A DNA stretch of 30,752 nt, from NCBI RefSeq assembly GCF_003334315.1, contig NZ_QOWR01000055.1; one strand, given 5' to 3'. The notes beneath the pieces were generated by a model. That model was not told where the DNA came from. It was given only the letters and a program-made list of their open reading frames with translations, and made no database searches. Below are positions 30,274-30,752 of this stretch, one piece after another (positions within the stretch are counted from its first letter, which is position 1; each line of letters begins with the position of its first letter). This DNA is from Escherichia coli (GTDB taxonomy: Bacteria; Pseudomonadota; Gammaproteobacteria; Enterobacterales; Enterobacteriaceae). A program made the position numbers and the translations under genes.

Positions 30274-30406
30274 TGGTGCATCCGGGAGGATGACTCACTG
30301 ACGTTCGCCCTTCGGGCCGTTGCTGGCGCAACGTTATCCTTCCTGGTGCCTGCGGCTAATACCGCTATCTCTTCGATACCTTCATTGCTGAAGGTTACGG
30401 AGAATA
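30274..30406 (-). repeat. Spacer repeat unit beginning with a 17-nt copy of the tRNA-Arg 3' end (pseudo-tRNA 3' fragment)
   Basis: tggtgcatccgggagga at 30274..30290 is identical to the first 17 nt of the adjacent tRNA (its 3' end incl. CCA on the minus strand) and then diverges; the unit is nearly identical to 30547..30681. Confidence 0.7.
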
Positions 30407-30483
30407 TGGTGCATCCGGGAGGATTCGAACCTCCGACCGCTCGGTTCGTAGCCGAGTACTCTATCCAGCTGAGCTACGGATGC
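30407..30483 (-). tRNA. argQ: tRNA-Arg (anticodon ACG)
   Basis: Reverse complement reads GCATCCGTAGCTCAGCTGGATAGAGTACTCGGCTACGAACCGAGCGGTCGGAGGTTCGAATCCTCCCGGATGCACCA, with ACG anticodon in CGGCTACGAACCG and encoded CCA. Locus name assumes K-12-like order (first Arg tRNA after yqaB). Confidence 0.93.
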
Positions 30484-30546
30484 ATCGGGAAAACTTATTC
30501 TACTGCTGATATTGATACCGCTACTAAAGCCATATCAATTAAGAGA

Positions 30547-30681
30547 TGGTGCATCCGGGAGGATTACTCGCCTTGCGGCTCGCCCTTCGGGCCGTTGCTA
30601 AAGCAACGTTATCCTTCCTGGTGCCTGCGGCTAATACCGCTATCTCTTCGATACCTTCATTGCTGAAGGTTACGGAGAATA
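30547..30681 (-). repeat. Second copy of the spacer repeat unit with pseudo-tRNA 3' fragment
   Basis: Near-identical to 30274..30406 apart from a short variable block (tgactcactgacgtt vs ttactcgccttgcggct) and ctggcgcaa vs ctaaagcaa. Confidence 0.7.
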
Positions 30682-30752
30682 TGGTGCATCCGGGAGGATT
30701 CGAACCTCCGACCGCTCGGTTCGTAGCCGAGTACTCTATCCAGCTGAGCTAC
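30682..30752 (-). tRNA. argZ: tRNA-Arg (ACG), second copy, truncated by the window edge (5' end missing)
   Basis: Identical to 30407..30477 over the 71 nt present; 275-bp spacing from the first copy. Confidence 0.88.

Follow-up and report, generated by a model that had tools for sequence, protein, structure and literature searches.

The end of the stretch of Escherichia coli DNA analysed here (the window, 30,752 nucleotides in full) raises the question why the 3' end of a tRNA gene recurs there outside the tRNA genes themselves. The window ends in the serV-argVYZQ (serV-argV-argY-argZ-argQ) tRNA operon of E. coli, which lies on the minus strand, and here it matches E. coli yqaB-argQ-argZ with 100% identity. 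The final gene of the operon, argQ, encodes tRNA-Arg(ACG) and was placed at 30407-30483 (minus strand) by ARAGORN, PGAP and the Rfam tRNA model (67.1 bits). A second tRNA-Arg(ACG) gene, argZ (30682-30752, minus strand), is taken from the PGAP annotation of the 100%-identical strain 1223 and is cut at the end of the window, which removes its 5' end and leaves 71 of its 77 nt. Its Rfam tRNA match, 5'-truncated by the window end, covers 30685-30752 on the minus strand with 50.5 bits, and across the shared 71 nt argZ equals argQ in sequence. The neighbours of the arg genes are yqaB, yqaA, gshA, csrA and alaS. The initial annotation described two tRNA-Arg genes in a periodic 275-bp array. This is borne out by ARAGORN, Rfam tRNA and PGAP and by a 173-nt direct repeat (30305-30477 versus 30580-30752) that is 98% identical and has a period of 275 bp. 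Tandem Repeats Finder did not report this period in the window, because the window is too short for two complete units.

Exactly four sites in the window carry the 17-mer TGGTGCATCCGGGAGGA, namely 30274, 30407, 30547 and 30682, and it was not matched once in 100 shuffles. The occurrences at 30407 and 30682 are the genuine tRNA 3' ends, those at 30274-30290 and 30547-30563 are extra copies. The perfect 17-nt copies noted at first are exact at both 30274 and 30547 and extend even further, to 18/18 nt at 30274-30291 and 19/19 nt at 30547-30565. Since the operon is read from the minus strand, each extra copy is the end of a 133-135-nt element behind a tRNA, and not the beginning of the spacer as had been proposed. 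Moreover, the two units diverge in two blocks rather than in the single one originally described, one formed by the hairpin-C region (30291-30312 versus 30564-30587), the other by the hairpin-A loop (approximately 30321-30326 versus 30596-30601).

Three further features frame the elements. The 63-nt leader of argQ (30484-30546, minus strand), which is the part of the spacer that is kept in element-less strains, contains the hairpin UUGAUAUG...UAUCAA; its fold of -13 kcal/mol is not significant (z=-1.55). A weak terminator-like hairpin (30153-30167, minus strand), which adjoins the trailing element on one side and yqaB on the other, is a candidate for the end of the operon transcript. It stems from a consensus scan that returned 3 sites versus 1.0 expected in the region and is no evidence of function. 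Finally, the open-reading-frame list contains a mechanical 138-aa ORF with a TTG start (30250-30666, plus strand). It runs antisense to argQ and to both elements and no CDS is annotated at this position in the RefSeq records, in line with the earlier view that it is spurious.

The two extra tRNA 3'-end copies are the 3' termini of two tRNA-linked repeats (TLRs) that have already been catalogued, raZ and raQ. TLRs are defined by 18-19 bp at their 3' end that exactly repeat the tRNA or rRNA gene upstream (PMC8144298). The family was described in 1978 (Egan & Landy 1978) and then by Rudd 1999, as cited in PMC8144298. E. coli K-12 has 22 TLRs, of which those in the Arg operon are named raV, raZ and raQ (EcoGene; PMC8144298). 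The supplementary strain table lists delta(argY/Z/Q, raQ/Z/V) among 22 TLR deletions, and a strain from which every one of the 22 TLRs is missing is included in the published strain table (PMC8144298). The elements in the window agree with this description in location, lying directly behind argZ and argQ on the same minus strand, and in their 3' ends, which match 19/19 at 30547-30565 and 18/18 at 30274-30291. They also agree in similarity, as shown by alignment A1 with the tyrT units and by direct reading of the lysT and rrnB sequences, and the locus is present in the K-12 deletion list.

Searches with the core of the elements gave 160 matches across 120 genome loci. In 88 of the 160, the closest tRNA upstream (Tyr, Lys, Arg, Pro or Glu) has its 3' end repeated at 18/18 positions, and 12 matches are linked to 5S rRNA. 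The same core stands behind genes for tRNA-Tyr, Lys, Pro and Glu and behind those for 5S rRNA, among them in the T1-T2 region of rrnB, and its terminus is always a copy of the host gene's own 3' end. In the lysT operon every long spacer contains TLRs. A model of the Arg and Lys domains matches the Tyr, Pro, Glu and 5S classes with E values of 1e-4 to 1e-11, the matched sequences having been retrieved with a shared 19-mer. A full-text literature search for the core sequence gave no match. The spacer family is already known and the Arg elements are existing members of it; the 133-135-nt stretches are neither junk spacer nor coding ORF.

raZ (30547-30681, minus strand) is the 135-nt repeat behind argZ. 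It is composed of hairpin 1, hairpin 2 and a 78-nt cloverleaf-like domain, and it was delimited by Rfam RtT, by our own model R1 and by RNAfold. The full-length RtT match reaches 30.0 bits (E=0.0025), which is below the gathering score of 45, the R1 score is 96.6 bits, and the RNAfold structure has an energy of -54.4 kcal/mol (z=-5.4). The trailing repeat behind argQ, raQ (30274-30406, minus strand), comprises 133 nt, ends in the 18-nt copy at 30274-30291 and scores 24.6 bits with RtT (E=0.053) and 82.8 bits with R1 (fold z=-4.56). In the predicted fold of raZ, found in both the MFE and the centroid structures, the strand GCACCAGGAAGGAU (30611-30624, minus strand) complements the copied tRNA 3' end. 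Sequence comparison and fold together divide the 19-nt copy, AAUCCUCCCGGAUGCACCA (30547-30565, minus strand), into the 3' strand of the closing helix (30551-30564) and an unpaired ACCA tail (30547-30550). Copied end and upstream complement are thereby predicted to form a helix resembling an acceptor/T stem, with a free ACCA tail and three enclosed hairpins. These hairpins make up the conserved core (30570-30608, minus strand), which was delimited by alignment A1, covariation and the core search: hairpin A is CGUUGC-UUUA-GCAACG, hairpin B is GCCC-GAA-GGGC and hairpin C is GCC-GCAA-GGC.

Conservation of this fold is directly observed. In the RNAalifold consensus of 17 Arg elements from 12 genera, 10 of the 33 pairs show compensatory changes. 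Across 28 Arg and Lys domains 87% of the cells are paired, compared to 28-46% with slid partners, and the covariation score is 0.126 as opposed to 0.052 after shuffling, with none of 500 shuffles reaching 0.126. Within the closing helix, 14 sequences have GC and 11 have UA at pair 10-73 (alignment A2), and pair 14-69 changes from GC to AU in Hafnia, matching the Hafnia tRNA variant. Hairpin C covaries as well (GC 16, CG 5, AU 3); hairpins A and B are invariant, in part because the retrieval pattern fixed both. When duplex energies are compared between own and other tails, the upstream strands of the Arg, Tyr and Lys classes pair best with the tail of their own class, and the preference is equivocal for Pro, Glu and 5S. 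The folding signal is not specific to one strand: the antisense strand of the E. coli elements folds equally stably (z=-4.7 to -4.8), and strand tests based on G.U versus A.C counts give opposite answers, A3 pointing to the sense strand (30 versus 6) and A2 with an ungapped helix to the antisense strand (12 versus 43).

In Rfam, the tyrT subset of the TLRs is represented by RtT (RF00391; rttR/rtT of tyrT-tyrV), with a gathering score of 45 bits. The Arg elements share with RtT the core hairpins and the GAGTAATCC junction, and in both the 3' end of the host tRNA terminates the unit and forms the closing helix. The 3' approximately 75 nt of the Arg elements align with the rtT units of tyrT over AACGTTGC, GCAACGGCCCGAAGGGCGA and GAGTAATCC, in this order and followed by the host-specific 3' end. 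The outer helix of RtT is found as well, since a G-rich 5' strand and the copied end enclose the CGUUGC and GCCCGAAGGGC hairpins. All Arg copies score 22.8-31 bits and stay below the threshold, the tyrT units score 133-137 bits and the lysT copies 46.7-60 bits. The Arg elements are a short form, without the inner hairpins GAGAACC..GGUUCGA and CUCGAGCG..CGAGAG that RtT has in its closing helix. The first of these resembles a T arm, and both are present in an Arg element of Yersinia nurmii (L073). Unlike RtT, the Arg elements have two hairpins outside the closing helix, and they come with neither a tpr-like ORF nor tandem arrays of the element alone. The 5' strand of the Arg closing helix is placed differently from the cmscan alignment. 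Stretches of the raZ/raQ type are left blank by PGAP and are missed at the Rfam RtT threshold.

Other identities were considered for the elements and rejected. A degenerate tRNA gene does not agree with ARAGORN, which calls one tRNA only, or with the Rfam tRNA model, which at E<=1 matches only the real genes. The 78-nt domain has the shape of a cloverleaf, yet its arms are unrelated to tRNA arms. Because the long forms contain GAUGAG..hairpin..CGA, we also considered a hammerhead ribozyme (CUGAUGA, GAA). Their core departs from the hammerhead letters, reading GGAUGA or GGGUGA together with GA followed by U or C, and Rfam scans at E<=1 to 10 gave no match to a hammerhead family.

TLRs are also linked to rRNA: RrA, RrB and RrF lie between the terminators T1 and T2 of rrnA, rrnB and rrnD (PMC8144298). 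Like the Arg elements, they combine the core AACGTTGCGAAGCAACGGCCCG(A/G)AGGGTG with a variable hairpin and a copy of the host RNA 3' end. Unlike them, they have 5S rRNA as host and are transcribed only when T1 is read through. They also differ from the TLRs of tRNA operons in having GGA motifs and in binding CsrA and Hfq in vitro (PMC8144298); for the TLRs of tRNA operons no CsrA binding is predicted, all 19 scoring <0.01 (PMC8144298). As a functional RNA from a tRNA spacer or trailer, 3'ETS-leuZ has been mentioned (PMC8144298). It resembles the Arg elements, if these are excised as proposed below, in being freed from a tRNA precursor by tRNA-processing enzymes. Unlike them, it belongs to no repeat family and carries no copy of a tRNA 3' end. 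It reportedly is a base-pairing sRNA sponge.

Taken as a whole, we consider it very probable that raZ and raQ are TLRs that are structured, that would be excised in a tRNA-like manner and that recombine. The excision of the Arg elements, and the enzymes involved, we infer by analogy with their relatives. Each element of approximately 134 nt would be co-transcribed with the tRNAs as a spacer or trailer, and its RNA is predicted to fold into two small 5' hairpins followed by the 78-nt domain. In this domain the copied segment, which extends from the T loop to the acceptor, would pair with the upstream strand and leave ACCA single-stranded in an acceptor/T-stem-like helix. The copied end and the A/U-rich sequence beyond it may present the same cut-and-trim determinant as is found behind a real tRNA. 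RNase E would then cut a few nt downstream of the copied end and exonucleases would halt at CCA, which would release the element as a separate RNA whose 3' end resembles that of a tRNA. That the pseudo ends could serve as processing sites had been suggested before, and the ends of two relatives are consistent with this. The annotated K-12 rttR/rtT RNA of tyrT ends exactly on the copied CCA, and the ends of RrB of rrnB have been mapped 3 nt past the 5S end and 3 nt past the repeat (PMC8144298). Less favourable to excision are Northern blots of the lysT operon, from which processing was ascribed mainly to RNase P, with stable spacer RNAs not mentioned (PMC4176162). A stringent-response phenotype of rtT, the sole published one, was retracted in 1994 (PMC8144298).

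At the DNA level, the 18-19-bp repeats formed by real and copied ends, together with the repeated tRNA genes, would be recombination substrates, and the polymorphism expected from this is seen among strains. In nine E. coli strains each position either has an element or lacks it precisely, and a strain carries 2, 3 or 4 tRNA-Arg genes. Two spacer lengths occur, 197-199 nt and 62-64 nt, and the junction falls exactly at CCA. The short spacers (K-12, O157:H7 and FDAARGOS_1372) consist of the argQ-leader-type segment alone, directly after CCA. The element-less junction, ...GCACCA followed by TCTCTTACTT, is the product expected from recombination between a real and a copied 3' end, which supports the suggestion of the initial annotation that the pseudo ends can be recombination substrates, and one deletion is flanked by two GCACCA repeats. 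A full element with core and copied end occupies the raQ position in 8 of the 9 sampled strains; in one of these 8, FDAARGOS_1372, the exact-core test missed raQ because of a one-base change (GCAGCGG). The 100%-identical strain has an element behind each of its four tRNA-Arg genes. Four Arg elements are assigned to the present strain, compared to three in K-12, which has none behind argY; otherwise nothing essential differs. The repeats explain the variation of E. coli strains in element number, in tRNA-Arg(ACG) gene number (2-4) and in the length of the operon. The Arg elements are individually dispensable, and their free loss between strains, together with the listed strain without the 22 TLRs, means that any function is non-essential.

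Precise presence and absence and dispensability are also what would be expected of a selfish or once-mobile repeat, or of a T-loop integration scar, that duplicates 13-25 nt of a stable-RNA 3' target and whose RNA fold is incidental or serves its spread. Integrases that target tRNA genes leave attL and attR repeats of the segment from the T loop to CCA around the insert and the tRNA gene intact. The Arg elements have this arrangement in common with att duplications, inserted DNA being flanked by a direct repeat of the same extent next to an intact tRNA gene. Moreover, one core is found beside at least 7 different host genes in several gammaproteobacterial orders, elements form tandem arrays, and in Pectobacterium core units of approximately 74 nt flanked by GTCATAAAAAAACG are arrayed behind protein-coding genes. 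In contrast to att-flanked inserts, however, the repeats of the Arg elements are separated by only approximately 115 nt, and they enclose a structured module that is conserved and has a complementary strand specific to the host. A search of the genes beside the insert (yqaB, yqaA, gshA, csrA and alaS) revealed neither an integrase nor a transposase. The elements are essentially absent from phage and plasmid collections, the matches there being misfiled chromosomal records and a few small unannotated ones. Among the nine E. coli strains we see losses only and no fresh insertions, and a simple insertion leaves both the host-specific complementary strand and the inverted T-arm copy of the long forms unexplained. 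We consider a selfish origin unlikely, although it would be compatible with structured, excised and recombining TLRs.

Less likely still is a regulatory role in trans for the excised Arg element, either as a protein sponge, as RrA, RrB and RrF may be for CsrA and Hfq, or as a mimic of the uncharged-tRNA acceptor that titrates, for example, RNase P, the CCA-adding enzyme or RelA. Such a role would fit the compensatory changes that preserve the fold across families of the Enterobacterales, the closing helix, from which exactly ACCA protrudes unpaired in the manner of a tRNA, and the in vitro binding of CsrA and Hfq by the related RrB (PMC8144298). It is opposed by the predicted CsrA scores of <0.01 for the 19 tRNA-operon TLRs and by the retraction of the rtT stringent-response phenotype (both PMC8144298), and by the many strains without individual copies.

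We find it very improbable that the copied ends are a passive by-product of duplication, in which the last 17-19 nt were copied along with the spacer and have neither structure nor role of their own. The periodic array and the shifts in copy number by recombination between strains would agree with this, but the copied end is internal to the 275-bp units instead of marking their boundary, and the upstream strand covaries with it. In addition, the same arrangement with the same core is found behind single-copy tRNA and 5S rRNA genes in many genera; the copied end is not a by-product of the 275-bp array. The unequal crossover or slippage initially invoked as its origin is thus replaced by a copied end that is integral to a conserved TLR family. 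Finally, the closing helix might limit damage by sequestering the copied end, which is identical to the true partner of the 5' strand of the downstream tRNA and lies 63 nt upstream of that strand, against mispairing with the acceptor strand of that tRNA, but this is hardly credible, even though the complementary strand tracks host identity, because in equilibrium folding of element, leader and tRNA the acceptor stem stayed intact and the copied end never invaded in 20/20 variants with a scrambled 5' strand, and because the helix is also kept in trailing elements without a downstream tRNA.

Going beyond raZ and raQ as structured, excised and recombining TLRs, one may ask whether TLRs in general, instead of being decaying debris of duplications, are gammaproteobacteria-wide modules selected to mimic the terminal helix of the preceding stable RNA. 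We raise this tentatively and judge it improbable. Three observations point towards it: the host-specific strand covaries with the host gene, long forms carry the host T arm in inverted copy, and the Arg elements keep a tRNA-like free ACCA. The hosts would be tRNA-Tyr, Arg(ACG), Arg(CCG), Lys, Pro, Glu and Ser and 5S rRNA. If true, the module would have a dedicated route to a new host 3' end and a common processing-linked function, for which a decoy or entry site for RNase P/RNase E or a mimic of the acceptor end would be candidates, and the purpose of TLRs, a question since 1978, would be answered. Handles for tests of TLR function are provided by the helix matched to each host and by natural variants with and without elements. 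TLRs occupy some of the most strongly transcribed enterobacterial operons, and the widely used rrnB T1T2 terminator cassette carries one.

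The initial annotation placed tRNA-Arg genes in a 275-bp array with copied tRNA 3' ends at the end of the window, and this is correct. ARAGORN calls a minus-strand tRNA-Arg(ACG), argQ, at 30407-30483, and the Rfam tRNA model matches a second minus-strand tRNA, argZ, at 30685-30752, which the window end cuts short. A direct repeat of 173 nt, 30305-30477 versus 30580-30752, shows 98% identity at a spacing of 275 bp. Moreover, the 17-mer of the tRNA 3' end occurs at exactly four sites in the window (30274, 30407, 30547 and 30682), two of which are true tRNA 3' ends and two additional copies, and has zero matches in shuffled versions of the window. 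The copied end had, however, been taken for the beginning of the spacer. Since the operon is read from the minus strand, the copy is instead the 3' terminus of a 133-135-nt segment. The 138-aa open reading frame at 30250-30666, dismissed as spurious in the same annotation, is present mechanically; it overlaps a tRNA in antisense, and the RefSeq records examined carry no annotation for it. Separately, the Rfam model 'Plastid-ycf2 5UTR' matches window positions 30409-30483 (+), and the corresponding stretch of each tRNA-Arg copy, at 33.4 bits (gathering score 65.7). We regard this match as spurious: its strand is antisense to tRNA-Arg and the model evidently includes antisense tRNA.

Over its final 1.25 kb, which holds yqaA, yqaB and the two tRNA-Arg genes, the window is 100% identical to E. 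coli chromosomes. In strain 1223, which is identical over the operon region, the order is csrA - serV - argV - argY - argZ - argQ - yqaB, with every gene encoded by the minus strand of the window. Each tRNA is directly followed by a segment of 133-135 nt, found after four of the four tRNA-Arg genes; a leader of 62-64 nt then precedes the next tRNA. The 63-nt leader at 30484-30546 (-), which is what is left where an element is absent, contains the conserved-looking hairpin UUGAUAUGGCUUUAGUAGCGGUAUCAA, with a folding z of -1.55 that is not significant alone.

Exactly this family has been described as tRNA-linked repeats (TLRs) (Front Microbiol 2021, PMC8144298). According to that paper, Egan and Landy made the first observation of it in 1978, K-12 has 22 TLRs at ten loci (Rudd 1999, EcoGene), and the amino-acid-starvation phenotype formerly attributed to rtT was retracted in 1994. 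Its strain table lists an all-22-TLR deletion strain that includes "delta(argY/Z/Q, raQ/Z/V)"; the Arg elements are therefore already named raV, raZ and raQ, and the K-12 names matching the two elements in the window are raZ (30547-30681) and raQ (30274-30406). Thus, the observation in the window is a rediscovery of catalogued elements that are already known. The RefSeq/PGAP records examined contain no annotation of Arg TLR elements, and a processing study of lysT calls its TLR-bearing spacers merely "large spacer regions" (PMC4176162).

The Rfam family RtT (RF00391), based on the tyrT operon, gives full-length alignments to all Arg segments, at 24.6-31 bits; none of the segments reaches the gathering score of 45 bits, whereas genuine tyrT units score 133-137 bits. 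The match is nevertheless real, because Arg segments and tyrT units align directly over their last ~75 nt, where they have in common AACGTTGC-loop-GCAACGGCCCGAAGGGCGA, a variable small hairpin and GAGTAATCC. Beyond this stretch each continues into the end of its own tRNA, TCCCGGATGCACCA in the Arg segments and the tRNA-Tyr end TTCCCCCACCACCA in the tyrT units. The Arg elements differ from RtT of the tyrT operon as a short form below the Rfam threshold.

In RNAfold the Arg segments fold with unusual stability (z -4.6 to -5.4); the predicted structure consists of two 5' hairpins followed by a 78-nt domain. In this domain the copied 3' end AUCCUCCCGGAUGC is predicted to pair with the upstream strand GCACCAGGRAGGAU, leaving exactly ACCA unpaired and enclosing three hairpins within the closing helix. 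Arg segments came from 12 genera: Escherichia, Enterobacter, Kosakonia, Hafnia, Phytobacter, Brenneria, Silvania, Pluralibacter, Citrobacter, Pantoea, Klebsiella and Yersinia, the last being a long form outside the 17-sequence alignment. RNAalifold of the 17 distinct segments recovers the same six helices, with compensatory changes in 10 of 33 pairs. A second covariation test used 28 Arg and Lys domains and a structure that we specified: 87% of cells are paired, versus 28-46% when the partners are slid, and the covariation score is 0.126 versus 0.052 for shuffled alignments, a value reached by none of 500 shuffles. In the closing helix, Arg domains have G-C at a pair where Lys domains have U-A, and another pair changes from G-C to A-U in Hafnia, whose tRNA also differs. 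The apparent conservation of the first two enclosed hairpins (A and B) is limited by the sequence-retrieval pattern, which fixes them, and for the E. coli sequence the antisense strand forms an equally stable fold. Counts of G.U versus A.C pairs pointed to opposite strands in two alignments, to the sense strand in one (30 against 6) and to the antisense strand in the other (12 against 43). The elements very probably belong to the TLR family, are co-transcribed with their tRNAs and adopt a conserved fold that places the copied end in a helix and leaves ACCA as its tail.

One genome per species was scanned for a 19-nt core, which gave at least 120 loci and at least 160 core matches. Among the 160 matches listed, the tail copies the 3' end of the closest same-strand tRNA upstream at 18/18 positions in 88, at 16-17/18 in 11 and at 13-15/18 in nine; seven have an upstream tRNA and a copy below 13/18, two are tRNA-linked with the tail cut at a contig end, and 12 lie behind a 5S rRNA gene, with AACTGCCAGGCAT as their end. 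The other 31, with no upstream tRNA on the sequence examined, are contig edges, a Pectobacterium class or chance matches in unrelated phyla. Among those listed, the copies match the tRNAs for Tyr, Lys, Arg(ACG), Pro(TGG), Pro(CGG) and Glu. The domain of long forms has as its 5' part an inverted copy of the host tRNA T arm and first acceptor bases (identity 21/23 for Lys, 19/22 for Tyr and 17/18 for Pro); next comes the T-stem 5' strand as a direct copy, with GGTTCGA. Direct reading of K-12 sequence shows that each tRNA-Lys in the lysT operon is followed by a TLR element and that another lies between rrnB T1 and T2. In the Rfam alignment of lysT, the RtT model borrows the real tRNA T arm for the 5' part of the domain. 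The K-12 lysT matches (L127 362-530, 651-817, 955-1121 and 1177-1344) pass the gathering score, at 54-60 bits, only with the 5' half of the model on the real tRNA-Lys T arm and the 3' half on a short TLR, which is why RtT coordinates there overlap the tRNA gene. The rrnB T1-T2 segment (L126 410-530), carried in many expression vectors, holds a TLR that ends in the 5S rRNA 3'-end copy AACTGCCAGGCATCAAATTAAG and scores only 17 bits with RtT; it is already published as rrB/RrB (PMC8144298).

Outside the Enterobacterales, TLR-like elements follow tRNA-Pro(TGG) in Gilliamella (L009/L010/L070), tRNA-Glu(TTC) in Aestuariibacter (L102), tRNA-Arg(CCG) in Marinobacterium (L007) and Amphritea (L035), and tRNA-Ser(TGA) in Photobacterium (L029/L055). 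In each, the host T arm is copied in inverted form upstream, and the host 3' end is copied in full or in part downstream. The delta-22 strain list places K-12 Ser TLRs at serW/serX (PMC8144298); Glu(TTC), Arg(CCG) and Pro(TGG) are not among its K-12 hosts. In Pectobacterium (L050, core at 3726 read on the minus strand; L051; L108, 801/875; L109, 476), the core CAACGTTGCGCAGCAACGGCCCGAAGGGTGA, a small hairpin and TCAT form ~74-nt units, single or in tandem arrays of 2-3, directly past protein-coding stop codons and before a terminator, with GTCATAAAAAAACG direct repeats on both sides and no tRNA nearby.

The suggestion that the pseudo-3'-ends act as recombination substrates is supported by precise presence/absence junctions in nine E. 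coli strains. Where an element is present the spacer measures 197-199 nt; precise absence leaves 62-64 nt beginning TCTCTTACTT directly past the tRNA CCA. Of the strains with four tRNA-Arg genes, 1223 (the window type) has an element after each, K-12 MG1655 and TB06051 lack only the second, FDAARGOS_1372 has only the fourth, O157:H7 has none in the first two positions, a 102-nt remnant in the third and an element in the fourth, and Ec-U4-19 has an element, an absence, a 102-nt remnant and a truncated element. With three genes, ETEC1731 lacks the second element and EC45 has all three; MC1061 has two genes, both followed by elements. The truncated trailing element of Ec-U4-19 (L132) has lost the 78-nt domain by a 70-nt deletion between two GCACCA repeats, that of the closing-helix 5' strand and that of the copied 3' end. 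In the 102-nt third spacer (L005, L132), an allele that a urinary isolate has in common with an O157:H7 strain, just the first ~40 nt of the element are left. The precise presence/absence junctions are the product expected if the real 3' end and its copy recombined or served as a site of slippage. The Arg elements are individually dispensable. The second of the two operon tRNA-Arg(ACG) genes of the laboratory strain MC1061 (L004) has the D-arm GTAGTTCAG instead of GTAGCTCAG, either a real mutation or an assembly error.

Whether the copied end is a processing determinant in Arg elements we judge to be evenly balanced; the idea comes by analogy, because the annotated 3' end of rtT is the copied CCA and because of the RrB ends. 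The three rrn TLRs, RrA, RrB and RrF, are transcribed via T1 read-through, and their RNAs have a 5' end 3 nt past the 5S end and, in the 173-nt form, a 3' end 3 nt past the repeat; recognition of the repeat by RNase E is a proposal of the same authors (PMC8144298). RNase E might cut directly downstream of the copied end, exonucleolytic trimming could then proceed back to CCA, and this would free an element whose 3' end is tRNA-like. A less likely rival reading, compatible with this main account, sees the elements as a selfish or once-mobile repeat or as the scar of an integration. That the element is a regulatory RNA or acceptor-end mimic is improbable. RrA, RrB and RrF RNAs bind Hfq and CsrA in vitro; the 19 tRNA-operon TLRs score below 0.01 in a CsrA-binder predictor (PMC8144298). 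Sequestration of a harmful duplicate by the helix and plain duplication debris are both very unlikely.

Several results may go beyond the accessible literature: the Arg elements as a short form missed by the RtT threshold, the covariation of the closing strand with host identity, the inverted T-arm copy in long forms, the family in other gammaproteobacterial orders and hosts together with the Pectobacterium arrays after protein-coding genes, and the highly polymorphic element content of the operon within E. coli.

Elsewhere, the window consists of ordinary E. coli core genome that runs from glaH via emrAB and luxS to gshA. The MicA sRNA lies at 27425-27496 (+) between luxS and gshA (Rfam, 83.9 bits) and lacks annotation in the strain 1223 RefSeq record. 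The alpha-amylase-family glycosyl hydrolase gene at 1-1167 (+) is a pseudogene with an internal stop in the strain 1223 annotation. Finally, two naRNA4 (CssrE, REP325-type) units, at 20650-20727 and 20750-20827 (+), score 59.6 and 71.4 bits between proX and an MFS transporter gene.
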